Positions 16,695 through 63,340 of a stretch of 64,000 nt of DNA are shown in pieces (within the stretch, counting starts at the first letter, position 1; each line of letters opens with the position of its first letter). The position numbers and the translations under genes were made by a program. This stretch comes from Psammoneis japonica. Its lineage: Eukaryota. The DNA lies in NCBI GenBank assembly GCA_008632985.1, contig QPGO01000082.1:248001-312000 (forward strand), written 5' to 3'. Under the pieces are notes generated by a model. The model saw nothing but the letters and a program-made list of their open reading frames with translations, had not been told where the DNA came from and ran no database searches.

Positions 16695-16730
16695 TTGTGT
16701 ATACACACCACAGAAGGTAATAAGTTCAAG

Positions 16731-21086: not shown

Positions 21087-21112
21087 CTCTAATGTGCAAT
21101 TAGGGAGGCGAA

Positions 21113-27622: not shown

Positions 27623-27695
27623 GATGTAGGATATAGTGTAGATACTTTTTTGGGCCCCAGGGTTGACGGAGCCATTGGATCGGTGTAGTTTTAGG

Positions 27696-34459: not shown

Positions 34460-37400
34460 GGGGCCGCAAGGGATGGCTGGCATTGTCTTCGCCGTTGAGG
34501 CAGAACAACCACGGCAGGTGATTTCCTCCCTTTCCCACGTCACTTTTAGTTTCACACTCATGCTTGCCATTGTTGTTGCTGTTTGTTCTGTGACATTCGA
34601 GTCACATGCATGGGGTTTGTTTCTCTTTTGTTTTGGCATCAGCCAACACACGTTGCATTGTCATCTCTTGCATTGCCATTTGTTGCTCAGTGCATTTCAT
34701 GCGATGCCTTGGCATTGCGTGCTGGCGAACATCATCTGTCTTTTCATTGTTTGCTTGTTGCATCAGAGTTCTTTTGGAACACGCCATTGAAGCCATGGCA
34801 GCATCACTTTTTTCTCTTGTTGAGGCTTTGGCACAGATGCCAAAGGAGTGGTGAGGGTGTGCACAGAGCAGCTGGCTGCAGTGGCCTTGGTCATCAAGCA
34901 GAGTCAGCAAAAGGGTTTTGTGCTGTCTCCAAGAGTCCACAACAGCTTGAGATGAAATCAGGCCACCAGTTGCCCTTTTTTGTTCTTGATGCGCTGTTGA
35001 TCAACCCACCTGTAAAATGTGACAAAACACAGAAAAAGAGAGCTGATCAGAATGTTTTGGCTTGCCAAAAAGAAGTGTGTGGGCAGGATGCATGATGCGT
35101 GCATTGGCACTGACACAACTGCACAGGGACTTCGACTCGAAACTTGTGATCCTCTTCCCAATGCCTTTTAATTTGCGAATGACAAAAATGATTGTCAGCA
35201 CTGATGCAAAAACTGGCACTCTTCTGCACATGAATGTCCCATCAATGGCACTTGACGGCTTCTTGAGCTCCCAGTGGGATGGCTTGCAAGTGTGCATTGC
35301 CTTGCACATGTGTGATGAAGAGCACATTGGCAAACAAGTGTGACATGCTCTGAGGCACCAAGCAGTCTCCACGCCATGGATTTGCTTGAACTTGAGCAGG
35401 CATTTGAACATGTGGCTCCAATGCAGACACCACTCAGTGCCAAGAAGCAAATCTGGTTTTGCCTCACGTTCTGGCAATGGAGTCTTTCTGCTGTGCATTT
35501 CTTGTCACATTGCTGGGTCTGCACCAATTCTCCATCTTCACAAAAGGAGTGCATTGTGTGACTGCCAGAATCCATTGTGGGATGTGCCAACAAGGCATGA
35601 GCATCACATTTTGTAAGGAGCACAAGGCAACTTGTTGGTTGCTTGTAGTCTGAAGATGACTGTTCCCTGCTGAAAAGCCAAAACAAGTGCCGTGACTAGC
35701 AATGGTTGGCTGGGGGCACATGCAATGCAAAAAAGATGCTGCAACACAACAGAGCAACAGTTCTGTGCTGCAATCCAACCTGTTTGTTCAACACCCCACC
35801 AGTTCTGTCAGTGGGATGCCAAAAATGATGTGACACAACTTCTGTCGATGCAACAAGCCAGTGAGAAACCACAATCAAAAACAAAACAAGAAACCTGCCC
35901 AAGCCATCACAATGTGCCTCACTGTGTTAAAAATCACACCGCATGGGGTGCAGAGGCATGCTTGCTGTTGTCCATGTCCATCATGCCCACACCACAAAAA
36001 CAACCATGATTTCACACTAAAAAGCATGAAAAAGCAGGATGACAAGTGAGGGTTAGCTGAGGGGGATCACAACACATGAAAAACAACACTCAAATGCAAC
36101 AAAATAATGACATTGTGTTGCATGCACGTCCACACTGCTCTAAAATCCATCACACATGTTCTTGTGCCAAAGCTTGTCTCTCTCCATTGTTTGTGCAAAA
36201 CCAGACTTGACTGCCATCTGATCAGGTGCATTTGCTGCAAATGTGTTGATCTGAAAAATGCCTGATCAGATGTCAGTTAATTGTGCATTTTTCACAAAGA
36301 CAGAATTTGCTGTGAAAGACTGACAGATGGTTTGACCTTTGTCTTGGTGGTGCCAGTCTCCACAGCTTTTTCGATTGTGATTGCTCTGCAGCATGAAAGA
36401 CAGCTGCTGAGTCTGAAGGTTCTGGCACTCAAATCAATGTGCCATTTGCACAGCTGTCCCTCAGCCCAATGGCAGCAGTGGGGGCTTGCCCCAGTCTCCA
36501 TCCTTTGGCAGGTCTGCAAGGTCCAAGCTCCTCACACCACAATGACAAAGAGACAGTTGAGAGCAAGCAACAGAGGCTTCACCATGAGTCTGCACAATGG
36601 CTGTTCTGGCAAGGGCTGTGTGTGCACTTGAAGATTGTGTGGCAACATCCACGCTCACAGCCGAGTGATGGCTGCACCTGGAGAGCACACCCACTGACAA
36701 CTGTGCAGAAAATCCCACCACCAGTGCTCCACAGTTGAGCCTCTGCACAACAATCACCTGCTTTGCATGCTGCTCAGTGTGCAGAGCTCCAAGAAGCATC
36801 TGACCTGGAGCTCCAGAGCAGAGCAGGTCTGCTGGGTGTTCGGTCGAGACCTCTGGTGTCTCAGTGGGACAGAGTGCAAGCAGAGTGCTTCTGTGTGCTG
36901 ATGTGCAGTGGCAAGAGAGCTTGGTCAAAAGTCCTTCACAAAGCTGCTGGTGACAAAATTGTGAGCTGCCCAGATTGTGAATTTGGCAAATGGCACAAAT
37001 GGCCAATTTTGTGAGCACTTGCATTGGCAGCCAGTGCACTCTCCTCATGGGCAACCACACTGTTGCTGAAGCAACAGACAAATGTTCCAAGAACATGCTC
37101 TGTGCTTTTAAATCCTCAATGGCTTCACAGTGATCAGCTTGCTGACAGGGTCAATGTGGCTCAAAAAGAAACACAAAAAGAGCTCTGATGGGCAGAGGCA
37201 CAGACACATGTGGACAGACTGGGTTTCTGGGCAGATGACCCATGACTCTCCCTCTGGTGAAAAACTTTGAGAGGTGGGAGGTTCTCTCTGAGAACTTGGG
37301 GGCACACTTGGAATTGCAGCAGCTGGGGCACTCCTCTTCCTCAAAGGCAAGTCCAGGGCTGCTGAGGGTTCAGCAGGAGCAAGACTCCAGCCAGGCCCAG

Positions 37401-39060
37401 TGGAGGTGGGGTCAAGTCAGCAGGTGCCTTGTTTGAGTCCATGGCAGGAAACTTGGGAAGGCATGAGTGGAGATGGCAGGGCATGAGCTGCCAGAGGAGG
37501 CACTTGAAGGGGCAAAGGAGGTGACTGGGAGGTGAAAACATCAGAGGCTGCTTGAAAAATTTTGCACTTGGGGGTCTTGAAATGCATCAACCTTGACTTG
37601 TTGGTCTTCAACCACAGTGCACTGGTGTGCACTGTCTTTTTCCAAAAGGGTGGTCAGCTCTGGAGATCCCATGGCAGACAGCAAGCCCTGATTGGCAGGA
37701 ACAGTGCTGCACCCATCCTCAAAAGCAACTTGAAATTGAAGGGTGATGGCTCCCATTTCAATGCCATCTGGCTGCTCAGGAGCACCAGCAGGGCCACTGG
37801 CAGCGTTGCTCTGCACTGAGTTCCACATGCAGACACACCATTTTGGTGACTGCTTCTTGCCACTGGCAATTTTCTTTTCAAAAGTGCTGATGGGGTGCCC
37901 CCAAACACACTGTGCTGCACGTTCAACTTGCTTGGTTCCTCAATTTTAAGTTTTCTTTTGTGTTTGTTCTGTGTCTTTGTTGGCTTCATTCTTCTCAACC
38001 ACTGCTGTGACAGACAATGATGCTCAATTCTCTGTCACCCTTTTTAACTTGATTTGGCTGCTGATGTGTGCCCTGCATCTCTTTGACTGCGCACTTCAAA
38101 CTGTGGCATTCATCAGACAAACAGTGTCCACAGCCTGGCACACTGCTCAACACACAACTGTGCATTTTTTGACTGCTGTCTTGAGCCAAGGATTGCAGAT
38201 GTTTGAGCCAAGGATTGCAGATGTTGTCTTTTTCCTGCTGGTGCTTGTGCAGAACTTTCTTGTTCTTTGTCAATTTCTAAAGCCTGCCTTTGGTGGTGGC
38301 CTTGACCTGCTCAATGCATTGTTTGAGAAAAAACTCAGACATTGTGGGACAAACAAGCAACACATTCAACTCTTGCTGCCATCTGACAACAACAAAAAAT
38401 TGAAAATGAGCAAACCTTGGCCAGGCAAGAAGACAAAGCATGTGATGCCAGGTCAGCCAAAGTGTGATGCAAGACTCACAAATTGTTTTTTTGCACCAAA
38501 GCTGTTGTCTTCTCACAATTTGTGTGAAAAAACAGAGGGTTGACTGGCAACTGATCAGGTGCATGTCACAAATGTGTTGATCTAAAATGATGCACCTGGT
38601 CAGCTGCCAGTCAAGCCCATTTTTCACAAAGACAAAATTTGCTGCAAAAGATGGGCGGACAATTTCTTGGTGCTGGTGTGCAGAGTTTCCATGCAATGAC
38701 TCTGCAGTGCAAAAGATTGCTGTTGTGTCAACTCACAAGGTTTGCCTTCTTGTTCTTGTGCCCCCCTGTTGCTGGCCTTCCAGGGTGAGGTTTGCACTCA
38801 CAGCAGAATCCTTTGCTTCCCAGGGTGTGGCTTTCCAGCAATGCTCTCTCCTTTTCAGAGGGGGTGAGGAGCTCCACCATGGCAATGGCTGGAAACCCAT
38901 GTCTTTGCCATGGCTGATGAGTCCCAGTCATTTTTGCTGACAAAAGCTGTGTCTGCCATTCATGAAGAGCATCGCTTGGGCAACCTTGGCACTTCTCATC
39001 TGGCAGCGTTGAAAGCTCGATTAGACTGTGTCTCGATGTGCATTCCAAACTCGAGCTCAT
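34460..39060. mobile_element. TpA/CpG-depleted degenerate repeat block
   Basis: Abrupt compositional switch between two normal genes; TG/CA-saturated. Confidence 0.65.
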
Positions 39061-41959: not shown

Positions 41960-44900
41960 ACACCCGCCGTTTTGGCCGGAGCGAGGACTGTTGAATCCAT
42001 CTCAGCAGGTCAGCACCTTGATGACGTGCGACAGTGATCCACAGCACTGGGTCCAGCTGGAGGGCACATCTCCTGCACAGCATGTGCAACAGGAGACGAG
42101 GCAGCAGGAGAGCTGTGATGCTGTGGAGGCAGTGGCCAGCAGGAACATGGTCAAACAAATGTCTGCAGCATGCACACACACCAGCCTGCACTGTGTGTGA
42201 AAAAAATCAGCCCAGTCAACAAGCTGATGCAAGCCAGGGGGCTTGAGCATCATTCCTGTGGCTCAACTGTGGTGGTCTCCAATCTGCGCACGTTCATCGG
42301 CCGGTGCAAGAACAAAGTTTGTCCAAGACAGAAACTCAGCTCCAGTTGCCTGCAAAGAGCTGCTGCAAGGCAGCACTTTCTCTGGCCTGGAGGATGGACT
42401 CAAGCACAATTTGGGGGGTGGGGGTGGCCAGTGGCTTGGGCTGACCAGATGCACTTTTTTCACACAGCTCAGCCAGGCTCTTTGTTGGGCACTCTCTTGA
42501 GGAGTGAGCAGAAGTTGTTGGAACACCGGGGTGCACTGTGGTTTTCTGAGCACAGACAAACAATGTTGCAGTGAAAGATCACTGATGACCATTGATGATG
42601 TCATGAGTTTGCATCATTTGTGAATTCACCATGAAGGTGGGTTTCATGCTCACTTTTTGGCTTGTGCACCAGGGCAGCACGGCAGCAGTCAGCACAGACA
42701 AGCAGTGCTTGCAATCCATGCGGCAAGTTCAGGGGTCAGCAAGACCAACACAGACCAGTTGGCAAGCTGTGAAATCCCAGCTCAGAAGCCAAAAGGGCTG
42801 GCTGGGAAGTCATCAAAAATCCAGAGGCACAGCTCATGTCAGTGGATTGTGGCAAACAAGCTGGCTGGATGAAGCAAGCACCAAAGAAACAGTGTCTGGA
42901 GGACCTTGCTGTGCTGAAAATGGGTGCAGCAAAGTTGTGTAAGACCAGGATAAACATTGACATGGGCAAGGACACAACTGAGTGCAGAAGCATGAAAGAT
43001 TTGAAAGAGTGGTGGGTGTGTGATGCCATTGCTGAATTGGGTCACAACAGGTGGATGGATGTGCAGAGACCTTGAGGAAAACAAGTGAGCATGTCAGAAG
43101 ATTGTTCAGGCTGGAGATGCAGGTGCTGGCATCTCTGAGGCAGAAAAACAATCCACAGGAGCTGGAATGCCCAATGCCCATCAGGTGCAACAGCATCAAA
43201 GAAGGACAAGGCAATCTGGGGGAAACAATGTGATCACTGTGTGAGGCAGGGTGTGACATGCAAGATCAAAAAAGGCAAAGAGGCATTCAACACAATTGTG
43301 GGACAGTGCACAAAAGCCATCCGTCACAAGGTTGAAGGAGTGATGGAGTTTGTGAGGGTCACAAAGGAGTGGGATGTGGTGGTGCCATTGGAAGTTCACA
43401 AGTTGATCTTGTTCAATGCAAATGAGAAATCTGCTCACTTGTTCAGGCTGTCAAGGCTTGGAAACAGCTGGCATCATTTTGTCAGGATGAAGGAGAGCTG
43501 CTCTAAAATCATTGCAGTTGGTTCATGAGTGTTGCTGAGATGGTGAAGGGTCCTGTGCAGAGTCACACTGGAAGAAATTGCCAAGAAAGAAGATGGGGGT
43601 TGAGAGCAAGGATGCTGATGGCACCCGGATAAAAGAGAGGATCAAGTTGTCAAGAACAGCACTGTTCATGGAAGGCAAAAAATGTCAGTGCTTTGCTTTT
43701 GAAGGACTTGCACCAGCAGTTTCCACTGAGGGTTGACAATTGCCCCCCCCCATTGAGCCAGGGATGCACTGCAGGTGTTGAACACATGTGGGGCCAACAA
43801 GGGACTTGAGGAAACGCCAACTTGCAAACACAGAAGAAGCAGTCAATGTGGATGCAGCAAGGGGGGGGCATGTGAGAAGATGTTTTCTCATGGTTTGTCG
43901 GTGGAGTCAGATGCTGAAGTGAGCCACAGGTCTCATGAAGCAGCTGCCATGTTGTTGGGTGCATGATCAGTGTGCATAAGGTCAGTCATTGACGGCTCTA
44001 TGCAAAGGAGTGTTGAAACATCAGGGCATTGTGCAGATTTTCCAGAGGACAGACAGACAATGTTGCAGTGAAAGATCTGATGACTGTTGGTGATGTTGTG
44101 AATTTGCATTTGCAAATTCACTGTGAAGACAGGTTCAATGCTCATTTTTAGCTTCTGCACCAGAAGACACAGCAATCAGTGCAGAGCAGTGTGTGCAATC
44201 CATGCGGCAAGTTTGGGGTTGGCAAGACTGACACAGATCAGTTGGCAAGCCGTGAAATCCAGCAGAAGTCCTCATCTGGAGAGGATGGCTCTTGCCATCA
44301 AAGCACCATGGAAGGCATTGCCAACAGGGCATAAAAACAGCAACTGGTGCAAAATGTGCTTCTTGAGGATGGTGTCAAGCTGTTTGATTTGCTCACAAAA
44401 CAGCTTGCCCTCTTGATGCAAGGCAGAACATGGGTGTGCTTCATGAGCATCATGGGTGAGCCAGCACACCATCACACAGCAGCAAATCAACCACAGCAAT
44501 GTTTGGATCATCTGGGCACCGCTTCATGTCAGCACATGGGCTGGACAGGAGGTGAAATTTGCATGGCAGAGCTGCCCCAAACTCTGTGGGACTTAAATGG
44601 GGTCCAGTGTGTTGGTCCAGGGAAAACAGATGCAAGGTGCCTTTGCTGCAGCCAGCACAAGCAAGCCACAAAGGAAGATCAAAAACAGGTTGGGCTGATG
44701 CCCAAAATAGCCAACTTGTCATGCCAAAAAGCAAAAAAGGTGACAGACGTTGAAGCTGCTTTTGGCCCACCACACAATGTGTGCAAAAGAGTTTGCAAAA
44801 AAGCAACAAAAGTTGTGCCAACAATGGCTTGGGTGCTGTTGGCATGTTTTTCCATGCCATCAAAGTTGTGATGTTGCACTCTGACATCCATCAGGTTTGG

Positions 44901-45470
44901 GGGCGGCGGGGTGCTGTGCTGGCACAGGGAAATGATGCGCGCTCACTTTGGTGAAAAAGACCAAGCCATTTTGAGCCAGCCAGAAAAGCAAGTGTGTGAA
45001 TTGGTCAAAAGCTGCCTCTTGCACAACCCAAGCAGGAGCACTTTGCAGCCAACGTCACTGTTGCAAGAAACCACAAACCAGCACACACCACCCACCCTGC
45101 ACCCAAAGGGCCAGTCTTGAGAGAGATGCTGCTGGCCTGTCTGAGTGCTTGTCTACTGTACAGTTGCCCAGCTGCTTTCAACTGCTCTCTTGCAAGCTGC
45201 GGCCACCAGCAATCTCCCCAATGTGAAGCCATCCAAATGGCGACCTGAGAGATGATGATAAAAAAAAAACAGAGCACCAGTGACACTCTTGTGCTTCTAA
45301 CCCTCACCAAACACACCAGGATGGCTGATTTTGAGGTTTTGAAAAAGTCACACCAAGGCTCTTGAAAGGAGGGCCTCGGAGCAAAAAGAAGAAAAACATT
45401 CTCGCGCCGTTGTTCGGAGTTGTTCAAGTCAAGAAGATCTTGATGGGAGCTGATGATGACAACAAATTAC
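41960..45470. mobile_element. TpA/CpG-depleted block containing a short Copia-like LTR relic
   Basis: Compositional switch; internal direct repeats and gag fragment. Confidence 0.7.
42516..44268 (+). mobile_element. Internally deleted Copia-like relic: LTR-like repeats ~42516-42788 and ~44011-44268 around gag remnants
   Basis: Shared acaatgttgcagtgaaagatc, gcaatccatgcggcaagtt and cagttggcaagc; aaaggag purine tract before the second copy; KEAFNTIVGQCTKAIRHKVE and LLKDLHQQF..VDNCP gag-like fragments. Confidence 0.7.
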
Positions 45471-45807
45471 TGAGGCACGTTTTGTATAAATTGAGTCTGC
45501 CTGTCCAATGTTGAGGTTTAGTCCACGAACAAATCATTCACGCCATTTCCTCAGAGATGAAATCAGACAAGACGGATGAAGGATGACGCACCCATGACAG
45601 ATGATGGCCCCAATAAGGTGCTGGTGGGCGGGCGGGCCGGCGGGATGGATGGAGCGACGTGAAATCCTGCATGAACAAAAACTGCACGAGCAAAAAGATC
45701 CAACACGTTATGTTGGTCTCAAGTTTTAAAAGTTGCGTCCATCTGTCTCACAAATTATCGATCACGCAGATCCGACAGTAAAGAAATTGACAAAGTGTAA
45801 GCAAAAC

Positions 45808-48820: not shown

Positions 48821-49499
48821 ATTTACTCAGTTTGCTGATATAAGTGGTCGAAACTTGGGAGCCTAACAGATTCAACGGCTTACTTCTAAATGATCAAGAT
48901 CGAATATTCTCACGGGAAGATACAGCCCGGCGGAATTTCGCAACGCGGTTTCTTTGTCGGATCGGATTTCGACGAGATATCCCGAAAACAGCTCTACAAG
49001 AAGTTTGCAATGGAGATCCTTTTTCTCTCTCTCTAGGCTAGACGCACTGGACTTTAACTGGTTGATTCATTCGACGCACCACCATTGGCAGCTCCAGGTG
49101 AAGGAGCTGAGCATGTTGTGTGTAGTAAGTGTGTGCAGACTCCCCCACATGTGAAAAAGACCAACCGCATGTCTCAAGTACCGCTTTCACACGTTCAGGC
49201 CCAGTATGTCAGCCGTTTTGTCTATTCAATCTTATTCAGACTCTAATGTTTTGATAAAATGACTCAGAAAATGTTCGTAATCGGTCTTGAAGGATTGTAT
49301 TCTTAGGGGTCGCGCGACGTCCGTGCGTGCGTGCGTTGCTCACAGTTGCGTCCGTCCGTCTGTGGTGGCTAACTGTTGGGCTCTTGCTTTTGCATGCTTT
49401 TGCTCGCTCTTTATGGTGCCGCACTCTCTACGGTAAGCTCTACTCTCCTATCTACTAGCTACTGTAGCTACTAGCTAGCTCTCTAGCTAGCAGCTGGCA

Positions 49500-51690
49500 G
49501 AGACTGCTCGCCCCCCCTGCGCGCTGCTCTGTTGATTTGGAGGCAGCTTTCTGCGGGTCGATCATTGATCGAGACCCTCGATCAACGAAATGTCGAGCAC
49601 AGGCGCCTGCTGAGCATCTGCGGTGATCAACGAGACTCGAACCCTTGGTCAATGCGGGAAACCTCACCTCTCCCTCTGAGCTCCACATGATAGATTTCAC
49701 AAAGAACGATGATGACGAGTTGCATTTTCATGCATCGTGTCACCGACTTGTGACTCGTCAGATGTGAATCAAGCCCTCCACATGGCTGACAATGTGGCCG
49801 ATGATGCCGACACCGGAGACCATGATGGCGACATGGCTTCGATTTGCCCCCATCCACCGTCACAAACCATTGAACAGTCATTTGAAGCGACATCAGCAAC
49901 AAGGGATTGGGACAAGGAATTTGGGGAGTTCAACCCGGACTCCTTTGAAAGGGATGCCGCGCGCCATGTGACAAAATGTGGAATCAACGAGTGTGGTGCC
50001 ATTGCTGGGGACGGAGTGACCAATCAGTCTACATGGCCAATTGCACCAGAGCAAGTCGCTCTTTTCAAAGATGCGCTCTTTTTTGCGAATCCATTCACTG
50101 ACGAATTGTTTTTTGTTTCAACAGAAGCCGACGCGTTCCAGCCCTGGGTGGGACTCCATGTGACATTGGGCCCGCAGAATTCCACGTGCGAGCTCCGTAG
50201 TGCAAGAATTTAACCAATGGATGTGTTTGTCTTCAACATCAAATAAACGGCCAAGTTTGTGGTGCAATTGTGCCTCTTGCCACTCGACGTTTTTGCAAAT
50301 GCACCTGCCCTGCGCGATTCTCAAGACATCACAGAATCGCGCTGCAACAAAAAATGTCAAAAGTTTTTGGATGGATCGCTCAATGAGTGCACCGTAAAAT
50401 GACACAAAACATCAAAAAATCACGTAGAATTCTGCGTGCGCGACATGCGACGAGATTCAAAAAACTGTGGATGTCACAGTTCAGCAGTGCGAGGTCCCAC
50501 CTGGACCTGGAACGCGTCAGCCACGAGAGACGAAATGATTCATCGTGGGTTTCGTCAGGTGCAGGCAAACCACGTTGTGGACCCATCTTGCCTGCTGGCT
50601 CCACCCCGGCAAGAACAAGCACAAGATTCAGCAGCACCACTCGGCGACCGGTTGCCTCCATCGACATTGCCAAGAGGTGGTGAGAACAAGAATTTTGCAC
50701 CAAAGCTGTTTTTTAAAACCAAAGAGGAAACGTGCACCACTGCAGCAGTCCATGCATGTGAAGAAAAGGTGGTGGATGAAACAAAAAATCAAGTGCATTC
50801 TCCAATCCGCCTGTGGTCATCTGCCGAATTGAAGAAGCACAATCTCGGCGGGGACTCGAAGCTTGCGCAGCGTCTCAAGGCTCATTGGACAATTGAACAA
50901 CCACTCAGAAAGGCGGCCAGCAGCACACATCTAAAACATCTTTGTGTTCTGCATGAGACTCAGATTGTCCATGTCAAAAAACAACACTGATGATGGCGAA
51001 GCAAATCGACTGGCATTGTTTCAAAACACAAAAACACGACAACACAAAGTGCAGCAAAAGCAGCACTGCTGTTTTTTTGCCAATTGAAACTCACCATTGG
51101 CGCCCTTGACCGCATGGCATTGCTTGTTCTGCAGTGGTGGCCAAGGCTGTCACGGATGTTTTGGGAAAGAACGGCCAAAACTCGAAAATGGGGTCTTGGT
51201 CGTCTTCGCTTGCAAGACGACTCCGCTCGTTTCCCTCGGCAACGCACTTCAACAACTCCGCAAGGCACTTCCAGTGACCAACGTTTCGAACCATGGCAGT
51301 GTGGGCCCCACAACGAGAAGCCCACTGGGCGCCCGAGCGTCGAATGCCATGGGACACGTGTGGCAGTCCCAGTGGGCCACAAATGTGTTCCCTGAGCTGC
51401 TTGTTCCAAGTCTGAGTTGAAACGGTAAAAAATGCTGGAGCCTTTGCCTTTTTCATTTTGTTTTCACCACGACAACGCCATTCCTTGAGCATCCACGTCA
51501 CAGGGTCATGTTTCAAGTTCTTTGGATTATGACAAATGCGGATGTGGTGAGGATTTCCAATGTTCACCTTCAACATTCTCAACGGCAAAGCTAACGATTT
51601 AGTGAGAAGCCGAGCTCGAGCCGAGAAGGCCATTTCCGCCATCAAAACCGTTAATCAACGGGGGTCAATGGCCGATCAATCAAGAAAACT
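49500..51690. mobile_element. TpA-depleted element carrying a tyrosine-recombinase relic (Crypton- or DIRS-like)
   Basis: TA-poor island bounded by TAG-rich tracts; recombinase motifs at 51091-51645. Confidence 0.6.
51091..51645 (-). pseudogene. Tyrosine recombinase C-terminal catalytic domain with the presumed catalytic Tyr replaced by Cys
   Basis: SHGIRRSGAQWA (HxxR), VGHWK and LLKCV at the spacing of the nucleophilic Tyr (TGC codon at 51244-51246). Confidence 0.7.
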
Positions 51691-51981: not shown

Positions 51982-53701
51982 TTATGGGCACTTTCTATTT
52001 ACAATGGCGGTGCCCCATTCGTCATATTCTGAACGTGTGATCCACATATCATGAAACGTCCCCATGCTTCCCAAGATGCTCCCTCCAAGCCAACTGCAAA
52101 TAGCCCGTTCCTGCATGCTGGGGGACAACACCTTGACTCTCCACCCAGGAGTATGGGTGTGAATAATACCCTCGACCTGTTCTCGCAACAAGTCTGGTAC
52201 GGCCTGATCTGTTGGACCCAAGCAAGCGCCACCGCCACACAGCACAACATTACCGAGCAGTGACGCCTGCTGGTCACGATCGCATCGAAAAGCCGCGTCG
52301 CAAACCATACTCGGTACCGCGGCCGACGTGATTTGTTCCAACTGATTCTGCAAATAAGGCACACAGGCACGTTGTAAATGCCGGTTTGAAAAAGGCGGTC
52401 TGCTCTTGCTTTCTTTACTGGCCTTTTCGGCAGCCTTTGTTGTTCTTTTCTTTTTGCTTCGTCGCGAAGACAATCCCACGGCTGTGCTTTCATTGTACTT
52501 TTCCTTGTACTTTTCGTTTTCTTCCGTATTGGTCTCGTCCTCCACATGAGACGCGTCAGCAACAAGGGCCGTGAACTTCTTCTGTATGTCAGCCACAGCA
52601 TCTTCTCTTTGCTGCGCGACCATGTCGTCTGTACCAAACAGCAGTTCCGGAACTGCAAAACGCTTTGCAGCAGGGACATCGACCTGCTGACCATCCGGAA
52701 GGTAAAATTCCATATGAGGAGCCTTGAATTGAGGGTTTGAAGCATTGGCATTGTCAGTCTTTGAAGCAACCGACGCACCAGCACCGGCTTCTTTTGCTTG
52801 ACGAGCCACGTCGAGACGAGCTAACCGATGAAAGGGCTCGGCGCGCTGGATATGATTCTTGCGTCGAATCTGATAAAGAGGCATGAATGGTTTGCCCGCA
52901 AGAGTATCCAAGGTCTTGAGCACTTCTTCATCCATAGCCAAGCCTCCCATGGGACTCCGACGGATACCCTTTTGCTCGACGTAGCCCTCATAGACCGGGG
53001 TGACGACAGTCCCTCCGTATCCAATATCGACAACCGTTCCGGTGGTGCGTCCCGTAGCATAGCATGCCATGGTAGCATCACGTCCTAGAAAAGCAGCGGG
53101 AACATTAAGCTCTTCCATGAGACACTCCAATACTTGTTGTCGAATGGGCGGGGGGTTGTACGAACGCTCCACCAAGAGCAAGGGAAATTGATCAGTCGTT
53201 GTTCCGAGTGCCGATTCGTATCCATGCCGAATCAAGTGCTGCAACAAATCATCCCAATCGGCGCCATTACTTTCGGTTGACATGTTGCTATTACCACTAT
53301 TATTCTCCTCGTCCCCTCCGTCATACCACAAACCCGTCGTTGGGTCTACCGGATTGCTCACATGCCACTTTCCGTCGCTGTCGTCTTTGAGGCTGATGGG
53401 ACGGGTGAAATAATCATAGTGAACCTTATCAATACGACGCCGACTTTTCGATCCGTCTGATTCCGATACGGATTTATTCTGTGTTCCTTCTTCTCTCAGG
53501 ATTGCTACATTCTGTTACGAAAAAAGAAGTGTGAGTGATAGGTGCGTGAGGAATAGACCGCACAAGCAAAAAAATCCAGCTTCATCATACCGATCGAAAA
53601 TAAGACTTTGGATAATCTTCTCCGGCAAAGCCCAATTTGCTACTATACGATCCAATATCAGCTACAATAGCATTGGCGCTATCACCACCCGTATAAGCCA
53701 T
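51982..53701 (-). CDS. ARP4: Nuclear actin-related protein 4; intron 53512-53590
   Basis: Exon 1 MAYTGGDSANAIVADIGSYSSKLGFAGEDYPK; GRTTGTVVDIG; SWLGGSILGSMGTFHDMWITRSEYDEWG...RKCP C-terminus; the splice is in frame. Confidence 0.92.
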
Positions 53702-54468
53702 TGCAGAGAGAGGGAGGAAAGGCGGCAACAACAGCGTTGCTACGGTGTATGGTGTCGTCGCTCGTCGTTCGTCGTTGTTGTGCGAGTTCACAGTGCATCG
53801 TTTGCGCGAAGATGCAAGAAACGCGCGAAAAAGCTTCACGTCATGATGACAGTCTGTCCACCCATCCGCATTCGAATGTCAACTTCTCGCTCGGGAAATC
53901 AATTGAAATGCTGTCAATTGTGATCAAAGGTGTTGCTCTTCACCATGCAAATCAAAATGCCTTTGATCAGATGACATTTCAATTGAATTCCCGAACAAAA
54001 AGTTGGCAGCTCCAATCACCCTCTCTCGTGACATTGTGTGCTCACCTCTGCACGATTTTCATTTTCCCTCATGCAAAATGTCAGTTGTGACTCTTGTGAC
54101 ATTTTCAAATGATTCCCATTGACAACATTGCACTCATTATGATCGACTCCAGCTGGAGTCTACAACATGAAAGTCTGCCAAGCCGGACATCGATGTTGTC
54201 GTGCTTCTTGCTCACAAAAAATGCGCCGCCAATCTGCTGACGTCATCGTGCACATGAGCTCAACAGGACAGAGGATCTTTGCATGATCCTGAAAAAATCA
54301 TCCCTTCATGCTTCACTGCACCATGCTGAAAACCCCGTGATGATCATCCACAATGACTGAAAGTCCAACTTTTTGTCAAAATCTCTTGTCGCACACTCAT
54401 CCAGTGCCTCGCTGATGTGATCAAATGAGAAAACTCCAAATGCCAAAAATCAACAGTCCCACTGTGGA

Positions 54469-54745
54469 TGACAGAAAATGAAGGCAAATGGCAAGAATTC
54501 AAACAACAACTCCTTGCTGCTGTCTAAATGGCAGATGAGTCTCCACTCAGAGACCGTTGCAGGAGCCGAAAGACGCGCAAGTCGGCACAATCGGGCTGCT
54601 GTCATTGTTCTTGTGAGCCTTGTGGCTCGAAAGCAAACTGCATCGCGCGCGAACGCGTGGAACTAAAAGCACACAAAACTGTGCGCGGCAAACTAAACAG
54701 CGCGCGACATTTCGCGCGCACCTGAATCCTGTTCAAATCCTGTCA
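54469..54745 (-). repeat. Copia 3' LTR
   Basis: Colinear with 61303-61579 without indels. Confidence 0.95.
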
Positions 54746-57700
54746 CTCCCCAGTTTGCTTGAGGAGCCACAGAAACAGATTCGACTTCGGATGAAATGAA
54801 GTTCCAGAACATGAGGGGGCGGAGAAGGTCCCAGATTTGGGAGCAACCCCAATGCTTGCTGAGGATGTCAGCAGGGTTGCGGGAGCCTTCGATGAAGTGG
54901 AGCCCAAGGCAACCAGAGGCAATTGCCTCACGCACACGGTGGAACGACAGTGCGGTGTGTCGCTTGTGTAACTTGGAGTGCGGGATGGTGGCACTGTCTA
55001 CAACCGACTTGTTGTCACCGAACATGTAACTGACATTGCGGATCGGGACGCCAAGGCAGTGCAGGGTGATGCGCAAGTCAACAATCTGCTCGACACAAGT
55101 CCTTGCGGCAACAAATTCAGACCCGCAGGTCGCAGTCTCCACGGTGGCTTGCTTCTTAGAGAACCAATCAGCCGGGAACTTGTTGAGGAAGTGGAGCATT
55201 CCCATGACAGAGCGTCCGGTGAGCATGCAATGGCACAAGTTTGCATCGACGCAGTGGGTGGTGGTGACGAACTTGCCAAGGGGCGGTGGAGCGTCCTTCG
55301 GGATCATCTCTTCTGCTTCGCCGCACACGGAATGCATCCATTCACAGGCCGGAGCAGGGAGATCCGAATGGTCGGGCTCTCCCGTGCGAACGCGGAGAGC
55401 ACCGTGTCGCATCTTGGAGAGGCACCCACAGACGCGTTTGGCACGATCCAAGTGGCCTTGACAGGGTGCAGCTCGGAAGCTAGAGAGTGACATGACAGCC
55501 GTGGCAATGTCAATTCGACCAAGGGACACTGCCCATTGGAGTGAGCCAACAAGAGACTGGAACTTGTGAATGCCATCGGGTCCCAGCAGTTCGGAAGTGT
55601 CCAGTTCGGGGTGGTCACCCTTCTCCAGAGGTGACAGGACGTTGGTGGCAGGTTTCTCCCCAAACAGTCGGGCGCAGCTGTCGACCATGCGCTTGATGTA
55701 CTTGCGCGGAGACAGGCACAAGGTTCCGTCGGGATCCCGGGAAAAGTCGCAACCCAGATGGAACTCAATGGGTCCCGCACCCTTGAGCTTGAACTTGTGC
55801 TTCTCCGTGAGAGTGTTGACGAAAGATTGAGGGTCCTTCATGGCAATGGCGAGGTCATCCACATAAACAGCAATGCACTCACAGTGGTCGCCGTTCCTGC
55901 ACATCCAAATGTCGGGTTCGGCGCGGCAGGGGAAGAAGCCTTCAGCTCGCAGGCAGTCGGCGAAGCGCTCGTGCCAGCGGAGACCGGAGCTGCGCAGTCC
56001 ACACAGGGCCTTGTGGATGACAAGGATGTGTCCTTCGAGTTTGCCAAATTCGGGTCCGGCTGCAATGTAAAGCTTCTCCTTGGTGGTGGCTTCAAGGCAG
56101 GCATTGCCAATGTCGGTGGCCCATGTCTCCAACTCGTTAAGTTCGGCCAGGAAAATCATCAGCCGAAGGCCACGGAGGGAGACTGCTCCGGAGCAGACAC
56201 TGTCGACAGGTGCATCTGTGAGGTGCCCGTCGGCTACGAGTCGTGCCTTGTGGCGACCGTCGTGTTTCACGTCGTACACCAGGTGCACTCGGATCTTCTT
56301 GTGTCCCGCAGGAGGAGTGGAAGACTCGAAGGGCCTGCAGTCATGGAAGACTTCACATTCGTCGAGTTGGTCCATCTCGAGATTAGTTGCGTCTCCCCAT
56401 TTGCGGTTGCCGTTGCGTTCGTCCAGTGACATGGCATGTTTGCAGTTCCGGGGAACTTCGCATCCACACTTGTGGCGAGGTGCAGTGTGGAAGGAGCGAA
56501 GCTTGGCTTGGCTGGCCATGCGAAACAGCTTCTTTTGGCACCTCGCGATGGTGCGGAACCGCTTCCAGCCATCCGTGTCAAGGAGTCCGTTCTCTCGTGC
56601 ATAGATGGCGCAGGTGACGGGGTTGTCCTTGGCGATGATGGCAAGAGGCTCGGACGTGATCTCCCCACTTTCCCATTCAAGCATGATGTTGTAGCTTGAG
56701 CCTTTCCAGGTTGGGTCGTGAGGCTTCAGAGGTCCTTCGTGTGACACGATGCGTCGAAATTTCCAAATGGCAGTGTCTTCGTCTCCTTGCTCAATGTGAT
56801 TCATGATGTCATTGCAGGCAAGGACTTCCTCGCATTCGTCGTTGTTGACAGAGCAGACGAACTCAGTGAGCTCGGGATTGCCGCTCACTTTCCATTCGTG
56901 GTCTTCGACGGCCTTGACGATGTGAGCTCTGTGGCGTTGTCCGTCCTCTTGTGGCTGCATGAGGAAGGTGCGTCCAATGATGTCTTGCGGATCAAAAACT
57001 GGCATCTTGGGTGTCCTGATCTCCCCATCAGGAGAATCGACGGGGTTGTCATCATGGCGAGATTTGATGATGGGTTCAGGTGGCTCCCCATCAGGAGGAT
57101 CAAGACGCAGGTTTCGAACGGCAGGATCGGTGGCAGCGGAGCGGACGTTGGACCGGCAGAGGATCTTCTGAGTCTCGTCAGAGAGAATCTTGAAGGTCAT
57201 CTGGTGGCCGACGTGCTCAGCAATGCCAACGAAGCGTCCACGCAACTCACGGGATTTGGACGGCCAATCGGAGTCATCGAGGTGGAAGTGCACGGGTTCC
57301 CACCAGTGAAAGCGAAGCAATGGGCTGATGTCCGGGGTGGAGCCAGTGAGAGTCTCGAGGGGCGTGCGCCAGTGGAGACATGGGGATGCTGCATGGTTGA
57401 GTGTGAAGCACACACACATGAGCGCCAGCAGCCATGTGTGGGCGGGCGAACCAAAACGATCCATGACAGTGTTCGCCATGCGCTTCACGGTCTGGTGTCG
57501 ACGCTCGGCAAAGTTTTGGTGTTGCTGGTGAGGTTCACTTTGCCAGCTGGAGATGAAGAGGGCCCGTGGGATCCCGAGCACTTTGTTGCTGATCTCAACT
57601 TGAGCACGGTCGCTGATGAGTTTGGATGGGGCACCACGCTCACGGATCTGATCCTCGAGTGTGTTGACAAACTCTTTGTCCATCTTGGTGCCGTAGACGT

Positions 57701-60363
57701 CAGTGACGGTAGACTCGGTGCCAACAAACAGTTGGGCACTGGTGCAACCAGAGTTGACGGCCGGGGTGTCGGCATGAACGGTGTCAGTGGCGACAGGCTC
57801 GTTGCGGCGGTGCACATTGAGGGCGGGGTTGGGTGATTTGCAGGCCTTCCTGAGGTGTGCACCGGCAGGCATGCGGGCGCACTGCGTGGTGCAGTCAAAA
57901 GTACGACGGACCGTGTCGGCAGGCAGGAAGCCAAAGCAAGGCCAAAGAGACTCGAAGGGCGGGTCCTTGGGCTGTGCAGTGCGCTCCGGGGGCGGGACGT
58001 CGTCGTCCTTGGGGTCAATCGCGTGTAGATGACACTCGCAGAACACGTCGTCGTTCGGAATGAGGTGATCATCGAGGGCGGACGCGTGATCGGCAGACAA
58101 GGAAGCGGACATGATGGTCTCGTTGACAACGACACGATGACGGCAGTTGCCGCATTCGTCAAACAGGTTGGCAGTGGGATCGTCCTGCAGGTCAGAGATC
58201 GCGTCGCACCACTGGTCGTCATCAGTGACAGAGTGATCGAGGACGGAAGGATCCCATGTGTCATCACCGGTGAGGATGACATGGGGCAGGGTGTCCCATT
58301 CGGCATCAGTGCAAGGTCGCATGGCAACATGAGGCAGGCCGGCCTTGATGTCAATGGGGATGACACAGCCATCAGGAGTGGCAATGCGTTGCAAGCCATT
58401 GGGCACCTTGACAGAGTGATCGTTGACATCCTGTTTGTGCCATTCGAGCTGGCCGCAGGAATGGATGGTCTTGCCCTTGCCCGTGTGTGCGTGCTGATGG
58501 AGGATGGCGATGACGGGACCACGCTGGGTCTCAATGACGGCACCAGCGGTGACAACAGGGATGTCCACCAATTGATGGTCGTCAATGCCCTGAACGTCGA
58601 CTTGGCGAGAGGTGCGTGCAATGACGCGAACGTCGTCGCCAGCAATGCCGCCGTTGGCCCCACGATCGACTAGAGTGCCAGTGCGTGTGGAGCGATGAGC
58701 AGAGGCAGAGCAAATGACATTGTGGTTGTCAATGCGGCGGCAAGTGCGGCCGTTAAGTTCCATGTCATCGGCAGAAGCTGGCGGGGTAGAGGGAGTGGCG
58801 GATGGCCCCGGTCGACTGGCATTGGGGGCTTGGTTAGGAGACAACAGACGGTGCAGATCACTGGGTGGCAGTGGCTTGCGCTTGGTGAGGTGCGCCAGGA
58901 TGGGATTGTCCGAAGTGGCACCCACATTTGGAGCAGAGTCACCAGAGTCAGCAGGAGTCGTGTTGGACAAGTTGACATCACCGTCACTCCCAAGGCGTTG
59001 GTCATGAAGGTTGGCCGTAACGGACTCATGGCAGTTGCTGGCTCGCGGGTTACGGGGAGGCGGACGAGAATGCTCAAGGATGATCGCCTTGGAGGAATGG
59101 GGCAACGAATCCCAAATCTGTTGGTGGTCGGGAGGGAGACGTTTCCATTGGTCACCGGCAAGGCTGGGACCACGGGTGCAGGCAGCATCAGCCTGAAGGA
59201 CGTCAATGTCACTGTCAATGTCGTAGAACACATCGTCGGACGGTTCGTCGGAGTGGACATCGTGTGCGCACATGGCACGTCGGGGAGCTCGAGGTGTCGT
59301 CTTGGGTTGAAAAGTGCTGTCGCATTGAGCTGCCGCAGAGAGGAGCAAGCCACAGCATTGATCGCATGTGAGGCTCTTGCCACTCTGCGTGCGATGCTGG
59401 TCAGCTTGGTTCTTGACAGCACGGAGTTCCTCGACAGGGTGCACGGCATTCTCGAGCATGACGCGCTTCTGTCCTTCAGAGAAGTGGTCACTGGCCGGGA
59501 TGAGTGCCTCGCACTTGCGCAACTGATCTTGCCAATGAAGGATGAACCCGTGGGTCGGACCTTTCCAAGCACCATCACCAAGACGTGCGGTGGTGAGGCA
59601 CGTGAGCAAGGTGGAGGACTCGACAGATGCGCGGGTGGAGGCAAGCGCATGCTCAGACAAGGCACGGCAGACGGTCTGGGCGTCAGAAGACCCCACATTT
59701 TCGCGGATGAGAGCCTTGCCCTTGTCGGTGAGAAGGGTGCGTTTGAAGACAGCGAACATGCACTTTTGCTGTTCAGCAAAGAGCAGTTTGTCTTCGAGGC
59801 TGGTCGGTTTGTACGATGAGTCTAGAATGCACTCGACGTCTTGGGCACGGGCTTGTGCCACAAGTGAGGTGTGCCAAGTGTGCCACTGCTTGTCGGATTT
59901 GAGAGCCGTGAAAGCGGTGGGATCACGCTTGATGCCTCGCTTGAAGTCTCGCACTGGGTCGCGTGCCTTGGTCGGGTTGGTGACATGCGGAGGTGCGAGG
60001 GGTGAGCTGCCGATGGACACAGAAGACATGTGGTCGGGGCTGAGGCGGCAGGCAAGGAACTCGTCATGCGTGAACAACGAGGAGTCATTGGCAACGTCAA
60101 GACCTTTGTGTGCTTTGACAATGTGCAGACCAACTAGAGCTGCTAACATGTTCTTACAACCACGGGGCAATGGGATCACACCAGTGCCGTTGTCGCACTC
60201 AAGCGAGTCGATTTGGGACGGCATGAACGTGAACAGTTCCTGATGCGAGTCCGTGCCGTCTTGGGCCAAAGCCAAACGAAGAGGGCTCCCAGCACCTTGG
60301 GCAAGCACGGTTCCAACAACGTGCTCGAAACCATCGGTTTGTTGCTGACGAGTGAGAACCATG
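54693..60363 (-). pseudogene. Copia gag-pol polyprotein, open but hypermutated
   Basis: FKRGIKRD, LVDRGANGG, VATDT..SDRAQ..SEPHQQHQNFAER, DGRHKARLVADG, DIGNACL, YVDD, WFSKKQATVETAT, NPADILSK; only about 10 Tyr in ~1890 aa. Confidence 0.93.
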
Positions 60364-61302
60364 GTAGACGAAAGTGGTGTCAGGACAATCAATTCTTGTT
60401 GGGAAGCGAAGGTAGACTTGAAACTTGGGTGAGAATGGACTTGACTTGAAATGGACTTGACTTGAAATCTTGAGCCATCTTAAAATCAGAAGTCGCCGGG
60501 CTTTGCTGTCCCGTTCGTTGTCAAGTGCTAAACTTCCTGTCCGGTCCGTAGAGTTGTGCCGGCACGTCCGAACCCGCAGCTGGTGGCGCTTTGGGTTGCT
60601 TGCGAGCGGAGCAGCGGGTTGCAAACCCCTGCAGGCAAGCTGACCAGAGGTGGACAAGACCCCCGAACCATTCTTATTTTACATCGGTTGGATTTCCCGA
60701 TCAGGCTGGCCAGTTGACGCAGGCGTCAGGCGCTGTGGACGAACGAACAAACGCGGGAAAGCACCCTCGCCCCAATGCAGGCTGCAATCACGGCTGCTTG
60801 CTCTCACAGTCGTCCTCGTGGACCTGGCAGAACTGCAGAGCACCAGCAGTCCGGGGCAGATCAGGTGCAATGGACTCGGTGTGCTTGTGGAGTGGCAGCA
60901 AAACCACAGTCCGAAGAGTGGGCACAGGTTCTTGGCTGTGAAGATGTGCACATGTGCAAATGTCTTCAGCGGCGAAGATCCTTGAACATGCAGGGTTCTT
61001 GACCGTCAACCGATGAACAGGCACACCAAGGGATGAGGATCAAGGACAGACTTGGATGTGACCGTTGAATGCATGTCTTCAGCGATCAAAGGCAGCATGA
61101 TCAATCCAGACATCCAGCGGCAAGGAGACTTGACGGTGACGTTAACTTCCTGCCGATGCCCTGGTGTTGAATGCGCGCAGACTTGCCGATGTGTGTAGAA
61201 CACATGCTGAGGTCCACGCAGAAATTGAAGTGGTGTCATTGGCAAATCAACAACGATGATGGCGGTTGCTCAATGGGTTGACAATGAGCAAGACTGTTGA
61301 TC

Positions 61303-61579
61303 TGACAGAAAATGAAGGCAAATGGCAAGAATTCAAACAATGACTCCTCACTGCTGTCTAAATGGCAGATGAGTCTCCGCTCAGAGACCGTCACAGGAGC
61401 CGAAAGACGTGCAAGTCGGCACAATCGGGCTGCTGTTGTCATTCTTGTGAGCCTTGTGGCTCGAAAGCAAACTGCATCGCGCACGAACACGCGGAACTAA
61501 AAGCACACAAAACTGTGCGCGGCAAACTGAACAGCACGCGACATTTCGCGCGCACCTGGGTCCTGTTCAAATCCTGTCA
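61303..61579 (-). repeat. Copia 5' LTR
   Basis: Matches 54469-54745; all differences are transitions. Confidence 0.95.
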
Positions 61580-61924
61580 GTGGTGGAAAACTCCACGCAA
61601 TTTCAGCACCAAGTTGTGCATGTCAAAGGTCAGTCATCACCAATCGCTGAACCAGCTCCCAAAATGACTCGGTCGCTGTCATCTGACATTTTTGCTGCGC
61701 TTGTTGTCACATCAGCTGTGGTCTTTGTGAGCCAGAACCCCCCCAGTTAGCTGTTGTTGTCATGTGCGGCCATCAATGTCACGGCGTCGTTGCTGTGATG
61801 TTTGTGTTGTGTGTGTCGGAGTGAATTCAAATCGATCACTGCGAATTTCGCAGCACATTCTACATGCGCAAACTTTGTGTGGGTCAGTGCGGGAACCGGA
61901 TTTTTGAAAGAGTGCGTTGCGCTC

Positions 61925-62090
61925 TCGCGGAGCGAGGTCATGGGTGGCAGTGCGGAGCCATGGGTGGTCGCGCGTAGGCCATGTTGGTGGTCGCGCGGAG
62001 CCATGTGGGTGGTCGCGCGGAGCAATCGAAATCAAGGGTGGTCGGGCGGTGGTCGTCGCTGGTCGCGGTCGCCGCAGAGGCCATGGGTGA
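61925..62090 (+). repeat. Short GC-rich imperfect repeats (ccatg..ggtggtcgcgcggag)
   Basis: About 5 imperfect copies of ~20-23 bp. Confidence 0.6.
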
Positions 62091-62236
62091 CTGCGCCCGC
62101 AAAAGGGTGCAAGTGCAAACTCGAAACTCGGCCTCATGGCTCATGGTGACTGCTGAGTGGCATTCACATTGCGGATTGATCATTTCGCTCTTCTTCTTCT
62201 CCTTGCAACAAATAGAAGTAGGTACTACAGGAACCG

Positions 62237-63340
62237 GTGTCACCTATTATGCAAGCTACGATCCATCGTTGCTCCAAGATGCTCGTTCTAGGAGAAAAAG
62301 ATGTGCGCCGGTGTCTGTCAATGTCGGATTGCATTGAAATGAACAGAAAGGCGCTGACCTCCCTGTCAAAGAGGTACACAAAGGACGGCAAGCCAAGTGG
62401 AGTCGTTCCGACTCGTTTAGCATTGCCTTACAGCAGTGGATTATCGACTGGAGACGATGAAGCTCCTCAAGACTGGACTCTCTTCAAACCTGCAGCTTGG
62501 TATTCACCCGATAATGTTCTAATGGGGCTCAAGATTGTTTCTGTCCGCTCCCACAACGCATCGATCGGGAAGCCAATGGTTCCCGCGACAATCATGTTGG
62601 TGGATGCTCAATCTGGAGAATCGCATGCGACTCTTGGTGGGACTTACTTGACCGCAGCACGAACTGCTGCTGGAAGTGCTGTTGCTACTCAGCTCTGTTG
62701 TTCACAGGAACCGTGTCGGAATCTATTGTTGTTTGGAGCCGGGATGCAAGCTGAATGCCACATCGATGCTCTCATGTGTGTGTTACCGAACATCAGTAGT
62801 ATTAAAATTGTGAATCGCACAAGAGACCGAGCAGAATCTTTGAAAGAGAAAGTTGCAGAGCAGTATCCAACCGTGTCGATGATAGAAACGATTCTTTTGA
62901 AAGACCACGGGTCGGTAAAGCTGGCAGTCTCGGAAGCGCATGTTATTGTGGCGTGCACCAACTCACCTACGCCTTTATGGGATGGATCATGGCTTCAGTC
63001 AAACTGTCATGTAATTGGAATTGGTTCTTATACGCCCGATATGCAAGAAGTGGACAGAGAGACTGTGGACCGATCGAATATCCTGGTCGACACGTGGGAA
63101 GCCCTGCAAGTAGGAGATTTGAAGCATCTCGACTCAAAAAGCAATCAGGCAGCCTTATTGGGGGATGCGCTATGGGATGAATCCAAGTGTAATGCTGGGA
63201 AGGAAACCGAGAGCGACAGTAGAAGGGATTGCACTTTTTACAAAGCAGTTGGGACTGCTATTCAAGATGTATTGACCGCAAGTATGGTAGTGGAGCACGC
63301 GAAGGAACTAGGTATCGGTACAGAGGTGGATATGTCATAG
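62237..63340 (+). CDS. Ornithine cyclodeaminase / mu-crystallin family protein
   Basis: LTAARTAAGSAVAT, LLFGAGMQA, IGIGSYTPDMQE, YKAVGTAIQD; the true start may be the ATG at 62279. Confidence 0.9.
   Translation: MSPIMQATIHRCSKMLVLGEKDVRRCLSMSDCIEMNRKALTSLSKRYTKDGKPSGVVPTRLALPYSSGLSTGDDEAPQDWTLFKPAAWYSPDNVLMGLKIVSVRSHNASIGKPMVPATIMLVDAQSGESHATLGGTYLTAARTAAGSAVATQLCCSQEPCRNLLLFGAGMQAECHIDALMCVLPNISSIKIVNRTRDRAESLKEKVAEQYPTVSMIETILLKDHGSVKLAVSEAHVIVACTNSPTPLWDGSWLQSNCHVIGIGSYTPDMQEVDRETVDRSNILVDTWEALQVGDLKHLDSKSNQAALLGDALWDESKCNAGKETESDSRRDCTFYKAVGTAIQDVLTASMVVEHAKELGIGTEVDMS

Follow-up and report, generated by a model that had tools for sequence, protein, structure and literature searches.

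The closest described counterpart of the locus reported here comes from the chlorarachniophyte Bigelowiella natans. In mutation-accumulation lines of this species, the main text of a preprint (Mettrop et al., April 2026, bioRxiv 10.64898/2026.01.13.699255) reports 231 of 302 nuclear single-nucleotide mutations within two integrated viral regions. All but one of these were A:T-to-G:C changes, all of the latter fell on TpA, and the rate was about 1000-fold that of the background; an ADAT2-like adenine deaminase is the agent proposed there, and reverse-transcriptase and DDE transposase domains are over-represented among TpA-depleted coding sequences (bioRxiv 10.64898/2026.01.13.699255). Here, we describe a Ty1/Copia long terminal repeat (LTR) retrotransposon in a 64,000-nt stretch of contig QPGO01000082.1 from Psammoneis japonica (hereafter the window, meaning the whole stretch analysed), in which TA has been converted to TG or CA, on both strands and to near saturation.

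As far as the text of the preprint describes it, the B. natans process shares with the present one the change of TpA to TpG or CpA on either strand, the confinement to foreign or repeated DNA in bordered tracts, and a long-term footprint of TpA depletion with gain of CpA and TpG. In contrast to the chlorarachniophyte, the host here is diatom-like (a stramenopile), LTR retrotransposons are hit instead of viral DNA, and the depletion is deeper (TA observed/expected 0.13 versus 0.45 in the nucleocytoplasmic large DNA virus region of B. natans). The LTR pairs at our locus also provide an internal clock showing independent hits, and the TpA process is combined with CpG decay. ATA and TAT sites were lost first and tyrosine codons show a strand bias, whereas the preprint text mentions neither a strand bias nor a flanking-base preference. 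Conversely, the B. natans rate was measured in living lines, while the Copia case is read from its sequence footprint alone. The preprint's main text contains no mention of diatoms or LTR elements. In full-text literature searches, it was the only source found to describe the same signature, which is absent from the available passages of a paper on diatom Copia elements (PMC2806351). TpA hypermutation having been recently described in B. natans, we would class as new the lineage, the retrotransposon targets and the near-complete depletion, together with details of context preference, strand bias and the use of LTR pairs as a two-copy assay.

Three other known systems share part of this signature. 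Fungal repeat-induced point mutation (RIP) likewise inactivates repeats by dense, context-specific transitions with sharp borders against unique host DNA. According to the passages available of one source, RIP changes C to T mainly at CpA, makes TpA and lowers GC content (PMC2621366); the Copia element, in contrast, loses TpA and its GC content rises to 0.57, against 0.48 upstream. Neither the TpA gain nor the lower GC of RIP was found, since TpA is lost and outgroups show TA to be ancestral. Deamination of 5-methylcytosine at CpG accounts for six LTR sites reading CG/CA or CG/TG and for blocks without CpG, but it leaves unexplained the loss of TA, the replacement of Tyr by Cys or His, and five reciprocal CA/TG swaps between LTRs that keep 17 intact CpG. 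Retroelement editing by ADAR or APOBEC also fixes a deaminase-type transition signature in copies (e.g. PMC4866542, in the passages available), and ADAR favours U before the edited A (bioRxiv 10.64898/2026.01.13.699255). In Copia, both directions are present and the two LTRs of a single insertion disagree in them, whereas editing prior to integration leaves the LTRs identical and runs in one strand direction only; APOBEC gives G-to-A changes.

Structure of the Copia element

The element is 7111 nt long, spans positions 54469-61579 of the window and is encoded on the minus strand. Its features are the following.

61303-61579, minus strand: 5' LTR, a 277-nt direct repeat, 93% identical to 54469-54745
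54469-54745, minus strand: 3' LTR, direct repeat with TA observed/expected 0.19
54464-54468, no strand: left copy of the target-site duplication, GTGGA, with 4/5 positions shared with 61580-61584
61580-61584, no strand: right copy of the target-site duplication, GTGGT, from the flank comparison with 54464-54468
54693-60479, minus strand: stop-free frame P0001, hypermutated Copia polyprotein of 1928 codons, from the alignment with 45 full-length relatives
55677-56315, minus strand: Copia-type reverse transcriptase, residues 1389-1601, Pfam RVT_2 (PF07727), E = 5.7e-24

The LTR termini read TGACAG...CTGTCA, and the two LTRs were treated as those of one insertion because the target-site duplication matches at four of its five positions. 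The Ty1/Copia features present are RVT_2, two direct LTRs with TG...CA ends and this duplication, for which 5 bp are expected. At E <= 0.001, RVT_2 was the only Pfam match of P0001, with no model matching the integrase that Copia elements carry ahead of the reverse transcriptase; the N-terminal 1300 residues align with relatives, and PF07727 is common to all 120 listed relatives of the protein. P0001 opens 39 codons ahead of the Met that aligns with the start of the relatives, and this Met at residue 40 (about 60362) is the likely natural start; at its 3' end, the frame reads into the 3' LTR. Further frames of 363-394 codons lie in other reading frames of the element. Within the 64-kb window, no further copy of the family was found, and an exact 31-nt LTR word matched 0 metagenome contigs.

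Differences between LTRs, relatives and genomic copies

Enumeration of the LTR pair gave 19 differing positions, every one of them a transition (19/19). They are listed below in left-LTR coordinates, without strand.

54507-8, 54515-6, 54558-9, 54603-4 and 54606-7: five reciprocal CA/TG swaps (10 positions), with partners at +6834 in the right LTR
54695: TA/TG site, from the LTR pair comparison
54545, 54649, 54655 and 54702: four CG/CA sites, from the same comparison
54576 and 54658: two CG/TG sites, likewise
54725-6: adjacent AA/GG pair, likewise
54507-54607: stretch of the left LTR containing all five swap sites, from the enumeration and the random-placement control
54545-54702: stretch containing the six CpG-decay sites of the LTR pair, from the enumeration

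Every LTR difference given in a preliminary description of this element (the swaps, TA/TG, CG/CA and CG/TG sites and the non-TA change tgaat/tgggt) was recovered. When 19 transitions were placed at random on the LTR 20000 times, swaps averaged 0.22 and numbered at most 3, never 5, and at least six adjacent pairs arose with a frequency of 0.0002. The CG, TA or swap classes hold 17 of the 19 differences, the other 2 lying in other contexts. Dinucleotides kept in both LTRs number 17 for CG/CG, 2 for TA/TA, 22 for CA/CA and 19 for TG/TG, and the only 3 TA left in the LTRs share the context cTAAA. Control LTR pairs of relatives retain many TA (TA/TA 22 in 537 nt, 51 in 555 nt and 42 in 495 nt). Control repeat pairs that are at least 94% identical (n=11) contain 0-1 swaps, and three less alike pairs contain 1, 2 and 6.

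The direction of change was read from the tyrosine codons of P0001, aligned with the first 45 proteins of 1800-1990 residues among the 120 listed relatives. Tyr makes up 0.52% of the window copy, Cys 3.53% and His 4.93%, against medians in the 120 relatives of 3.85% (minimum 3.03), 0.95% (maximum 1.61) and 3.55%, respectively; Arg content is unchanged (6.2% versus 6.0%). Where at least 80% of the 45 relatives have Tyr (39 columns), the window copy has Cys in 26, Tyr in 6, His in 5, Phe in 2 and Arg in 0, and the same 80% test applied to the other 19 residue classes gave retention in 80% (Thr, 32/40) to 100% of columns. The 61 Tyr-majority columns read C 35, H 9, Y 9, F 6, L 1, W 1 and R 0 in the window copy, while 67 of 81 Arg columns are retained, with changes of the CpG-decay type to C in 3, H in 3 and W in 1. 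About 83% of TAY codons now read TGY or CAY, compared with a decay of CGN codons of roughly 9%; of the changes that yielded CA or TG in the first two codon positions, 44 derive from TA and 6 from CG. A rough ratio from the LTR pair and the frame is about 83% of TA converted versus about 13% of CpG. Under the genetic code, a change of TA to TG or CA cannot create a stop codon and destroys TAA and TAG. The 1928-codon frame is therefore open despite the ruin of 44 of 61 Tyr positions, as TA loss removes stops and never makes them; the destruction of stops likewise explains the overrun of the frame at both ends and the 363-394-codon side frames.

Composition supports this direction of change, the element having a TA observed/expected of 0.13 and a CG of 0.84. 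The corresponding ranges in 79 metagenome relatives are 0.43-1.01 for TA and 0.10-1.17 for CG, with 2.5-5.7% Tyr; these relatives were found with the Tyr-containing peptide pattern ETATYGSE and serve only as an unmutated baseline. A flanking-base preference of the process explains the persistence of a few TA: ATA/TAT contexts account for 3 of the 44 surviving TA in the whole element versus 47% in normal blocks, and CTAN/NTAG contexts are enriched among the survivors. One of the metagenome relatives, L057, was considered as a second case for its many TA/CA differences between LTRs but is not a clear one, its transitions running in all four directions and TA being normal along the element.

Other genomic copies of the family were read from public-run contigs aligned to the element. 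Four runs carry the stretch, all from one sample of one study, and no RNA run carries it among the runs listed. Mean word depth was 46,684-233,151 over 27 bins covering 54267-61475, dropping to 4,243 where a bin spans the right LTR end and to 426-915 in the flank bins farthest out. Of 632 variable places between copies, 552 are transitions. Among the 38 places analysed one by one, CA/TG swaps between the window copy and others were found at 55369/70, 56002/3 and 56194/5, which correspond to codons 1704, 1493 and 1429, all three of them conserved Tyr columns; at two of these codons, the depths require that some copies still have TA. A further 5 places have CA or TG in the window copy with TA still at 33-72% of depth, and at 2 places, the window copy has kept TA where others have TG or CA. 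The CpG class comprises 12 places with CG in other copies and TG or CA in the window copy, and 1 with the reverse (CG kept, TG in others), the remaining contexts accounting for 12. Because copies vary at the same TA sites, conversion took place copy by copy and is not a trait that the family inherited.

A minority of A-to-G changes among copies lie outside TpA, e.g. GAA to GGA. This minor A/G class always follows G (GAA/GAT to GGA/GGT, at 54725-54726, 55381, 56785 and 60181), and the tgaat/tgggt difference between the LTRs falls within it. Such sites may be secondary targets of the process, in a context other than TpA.

The depletion extends beyond the Copia element to a bordered tract, and a second retrotransposon of the window is also affected. 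Both are given here with the host genes at the tract edges.

53749-62212, no strand: whole TA-depleted tract including Copia, from TA positions, with sharp edges about 720 bp beyond the left LTR and about 630 bp beyond the right one
51982-53514, minus strand: actin-related protein gene, Pfam-supported
62222-63340, plus strand: ornithine-cyclodeaminase-like gene, at the right tract edge
16316-21492, plus strand: Gypsy LTR retrotransposon, with RVT_1 in 17886-19304 and integrase in 20074-20787
16316-16694 and 21113-21492, plus strand: Gypsy LTRs, 97% identical and TA-rich

The edges of the tract, at about 53749 and 62212, adjoin the actin-related and ornithine-cyclodeaminase-like genes, respectively. 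Borders are sharp, and the changes are restricted to repeats, with host genes spared. In the left flank, 2 TA are present in 54080-54209 and 0 in the other four 130-nt bins of 53820-54469, where 8.1-11.3 per bin are expected. The summed depth of the flank bins is 914.6 and 425.8, versus 31.8-134.7 for single listed contigs, and the flanks (53749-54468 and 61580-62212) are probably themselves repeated. One contig links 54443 to 61601. The Copia element probably sits inside an older repeat that had already been hit, although the process may alternatively have spread from the element into its flanks.

In the Gypsy element, the 35 columns with Tyr in at least 60% of 40 relatives read C 11, H 8, F 5, Y 3 and R 2, in a noisier alignment of fragments, and a 472-codon frame contains 0 Tyr. 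The younger Gypsy LTR pair differs mainly by TA versus TG or CA.

Ancestry, mechanism and alternative explanations

We consider it probable that the locus contains a dead Ty1/Copia element that was rewritten at the DNA level by two context-specific processes, after its two LTRs existed separately. The first and faster process would change TpA to TpG or CpA, as an A:T-to-G:C transition of the A on either strand; with each LTR hit independently, an ancestral TA would come to read CA in one and TG in the other, which is a swap. The second and slower one (about 13% of sites per copy) would change CpG to TpG or CpA, as from methylated cytosine. The agent of the first could be a DNA adenine deaminase like that proposed for B. 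natans, possibly guided by homology, small RNA or chromatin. The process appears to act in place on chromosomal duplex DNA, because the LTRs of one insertion carry hits in opposite directions, because copies differ, and because there is the published B. natans precedent.

For the five LTR swaps, we infer TA sites that were converted independently in the two LTRs. Under a TA model with conversion near 0.83, the five discordant sites imply about 18-23 ancestral TA, which agrees with the TA density in the LTRs of unmutated relatives. The preliminary description had proposed ancestral TA with near-saturating conversion in both LTRs. This proposal, with independent conversion of each LTR, has gained indirect but strong support from the Tyr codons now reading TGY or CAY, from the three between-copy swaps on conserved Tyr codons, from the low TA of the element and from the misfit of a CpG-only model. 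It had also assumed a random choice of strand, of which the occurrence of both directions stands and the evenness does not, the split in the frame being biased towards TGY (35 versus 9 CAY). Its own refuting alternative was an ancestral CG at these sites. In this account, all differences, swaps included, would stem from 5-methylcytosine deamination of sites that were once CG and became TG in one LTR and CA in the other. CpG decay was indeed active on the Copia copy, as seen at the six single CG/CA or CG/TG sites of the LTRs and the 12 of 38 internal places, and some relatives are strongly CpG-depleted, with CG down to 0.10. However, a one-rate CpG maximum-likelihood model expects 13.5 unchanged, 12.9 single and 1.5 swap sites where 17, 6 and 5 were observed (G = 10.3, P = 0.0013). 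With 17 CpG intact in both LTRs and 6 singly hit, the rate taken from single sites is 0.13, at which 0.2 opposite double hits are expected and the probability of 5 or more is 2e-6. The three between-copy swaps in the frame lie on Tyr and not on Arg codons, and the element has kept its CG at 0.84 while TA has fallen to 0.13. We therefore regard a CG origin of the swaps as quite improbable. The six CG/CA and CG/TG sites of the LTRs, in turn, are ordinary decay of ancestral CG to TpG or CpA. At the loose contig end of another family copy (54675), CG is present at 54649, 54655 and 54658, which are all three sites of the cgcgCGcgaaCGcgTGg stretch. The suggestion of the preliminary description that some TA had been hit on both strands, giving TA-to-CG double hits and new CpG, is not supported, given this copy and the absence of Arg from all 61 Tyr-majority columns of Copia. 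Besides, a first hit leaves a site that is no longer TpA, and the CG observed/expected of the element lies inside the range of the 79 relatives. In its favour, 2 of 35 Tyr columns of Gypsy are now Arg, in the noisy fragment alignment mentioned above; it remains very improbable that any of the LTR CG is new.

A different account places most of the TA loss before integration, through editing of the RNA genome or cDNA or through inheritance of a mutated template, with the few LTR differences arising later. Two observations fit it: sense-strand A-to-G changes predominate at Tyr codons, and the Gypsy element combines a hypermutated interior with nearly identical, TA-rich LTRs, a picture reminiscent of cDNA editing that spares LTRs, or of recombination with a mutated template. 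Against it, both LTRs of a retroelement are copied from one template at integration, so that the five conversions in opposite directions within one insertion need independent hits on duplex DNA. Family copies, moreover, differ at the same Tyr codons, which read TGY, CAY or TAY, and TA depletion extends 630-720 bp past the LTRs, though these flanks may be an older repeat. The published precedent, as described in the preprint's main text, is in-place mutation of chromosomal DNA (bioRxiv 10.64898/2026.01.13.699255). Taken together, an origin of most TA loss before integration seems unlikely to us. An artefact of assembly or base calling at modified bases is hardly credible, since the public-run contigs show the same family with the same variation (552/632 transitions, CA/TG swaps included), the changes are coherent by codon (Tyr to Cys or His), and they end sharply beside normal host genes. 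A dinoflagellate host with 5-hydroxymethyluracil at TpA, a modification treated in the available passages of two sources (PMC11071213 and PMC11572971), was also considered and rejected, as the spliced-leader motif had 0 matches and the host proteins are diatom-like.

Several points weigh against in-place conversion of TpA on duplex DNA as we propose it. That the five LTR swaps were once TA is argued by analogy with the reading frame and from rates, and a conversion of 0.83 predicts more sites with TA in one LTR than the single one seen, so that the fit needs heterogeneity among contexts. The strand split at Tyr-majority columns is uneven (35 TGY versus 9 CAY), as it is at the 80% Tyr columns (26 versus 5, binomial P = 0.0002), and this bias could point to an RNA-level or transcription-linked step. 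A simple flanking-base rule for the excess of Cys over His was ruled out, TGC making up 20 of the 26 Tyr-to-Cys codons. The depleted tract of Gypsy covers about 17300-20550 and leaves about 945 bp untouched at either end, both LTRs among them, a pattern not predicted by simple mutation of a whole element in place. With a search pattern that contains Tyr, the set of 79 relatives cannot show that hypermutated copies are absent elsewhere, and the comparison of copies draws on 40 itemised places of about 640, of which 38 were analysed and the flank places 54408 and 54412 left out. The Cys:His bias and the interior-only Gypsy tract could reflect a transcription-linked step, targeting by homology or small RNA, or recombination with a mutated template.

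As a tentative but plausible extension of in-place conversion, diatoms may have a guided defence by a DNA adenine deaminase, a 'reverse RIP' that rapidly erases the TpA of repeated or foreign DNA in place, long before CpG decay becomes visible, and that, together with B. natans, would be widespread in the SAR (stramenopile, alveolate and rhizarian) supergroup. Such a defence would recognise its targets by homology, small RNA or chromatin, and it would leave dead frames free of stops and, finally, CA/TG-rich blocks without TA and CG. Under the same proposal, the Gypsy interior with about 945 bp spared at each end would mark the recognised segment. If the main reading of the Copia element holds, a mutational defence opposite to fungal RIP is not confined to one chlorarachniophyte, and it also acts in diatoms, which are major marine primary producers, and on retrotransposons; the enzyme responsible would amount to a naturally occurring DNA adenine editor. 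In genomes of this kind, LTR divergence is not a simple clock for insertions, 17 of 19 differences here being context-driven, and long open reading frames of transposons are no evidence of activity. LTR pairs are a natural experiment with two copies, from which rate, context and strand preference can be read, and CA/TG-rich blocks without TA and CG become readable as old targets.

Other blocks and genes of the window

Observed/expected dinucleotides were mapped along the window in 500-nt bins. Blocks of host genes have CG of 0.63-1.37 and TA of 0.33-1.03, and depletion of TA only was found in the Copia tract, the Gypsy interior and the stretch at 49.5-51.5 kb. The other features are the following.

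9001-16000, 21501-26500, 34501-39000 and 42001-45500, no strand: blocks without TA and CG (each about 0.05), with CA and TG near 2 (about doubled), from the 500-nt map
49490-51520, no strand: TA-depleted, CG-keeping 2-kb block, from the 500-nt map, flanked on both sides by short CTAG/CTAC/GTAG-dense stretches
26424-27623, no strand: tandem array of 329-nt units, 3.7 copies, 91% matches, from the repeat analysis
27696-28339, no strand: tandem array of 212-nt units, 3.0 copies, 94% matches, from the repeat analysis
30019-32001 and 32610-34082, minus strand: long open reading frames without a Pfam match

The doubly depleted blocks are complex, non-repetitive sequence with sharp borders, and none of the 63 stop-free frames of at least 110 codons taken from them matched Pfam. 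Of 75 stop-free frames compared with Pfam in all, drawn from these blocks, the 49.4-51.6 kb block and the tail of Gypsy, the Gypsy integrase was the sole match. We read the doubly depleted blocks as the putative end state of TA loss and CpG decay in old repeats, and the three block states as a time series, with fast TA loss followed by slow CpG loss.

None of the seven stop-free frames of the 49.4-51.6 kb block matched Pfam, and no convincing terminal inverted repeats were found at 49.5-51.7 kb. The CTAG, CTAC and GTAG motifs that bound this block are TA contexts that survive also in Copia. The two tandem arrays keep normal TA and CG, though they adjoin a fully depleted block.

The diatom-like nature of the host is seen in the actin-related protein. 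Its best matches reach 64% identity, its nearest Atlas cluster is mostly Bacillariophyta, and its named relatives are all diatoms (Nitzschia, Seminavis, Mayamaea, Pseudo-nitzschia, Cylindrotheca and Fistulifera), at 47-53% identity. The Pfam-supported host genes on the minus strand within 1-53514 have long, uninterrupted frames and encode Tdp1-like, DUF3593, two armadillo-repeat, MIF4G and actin-related proteins.

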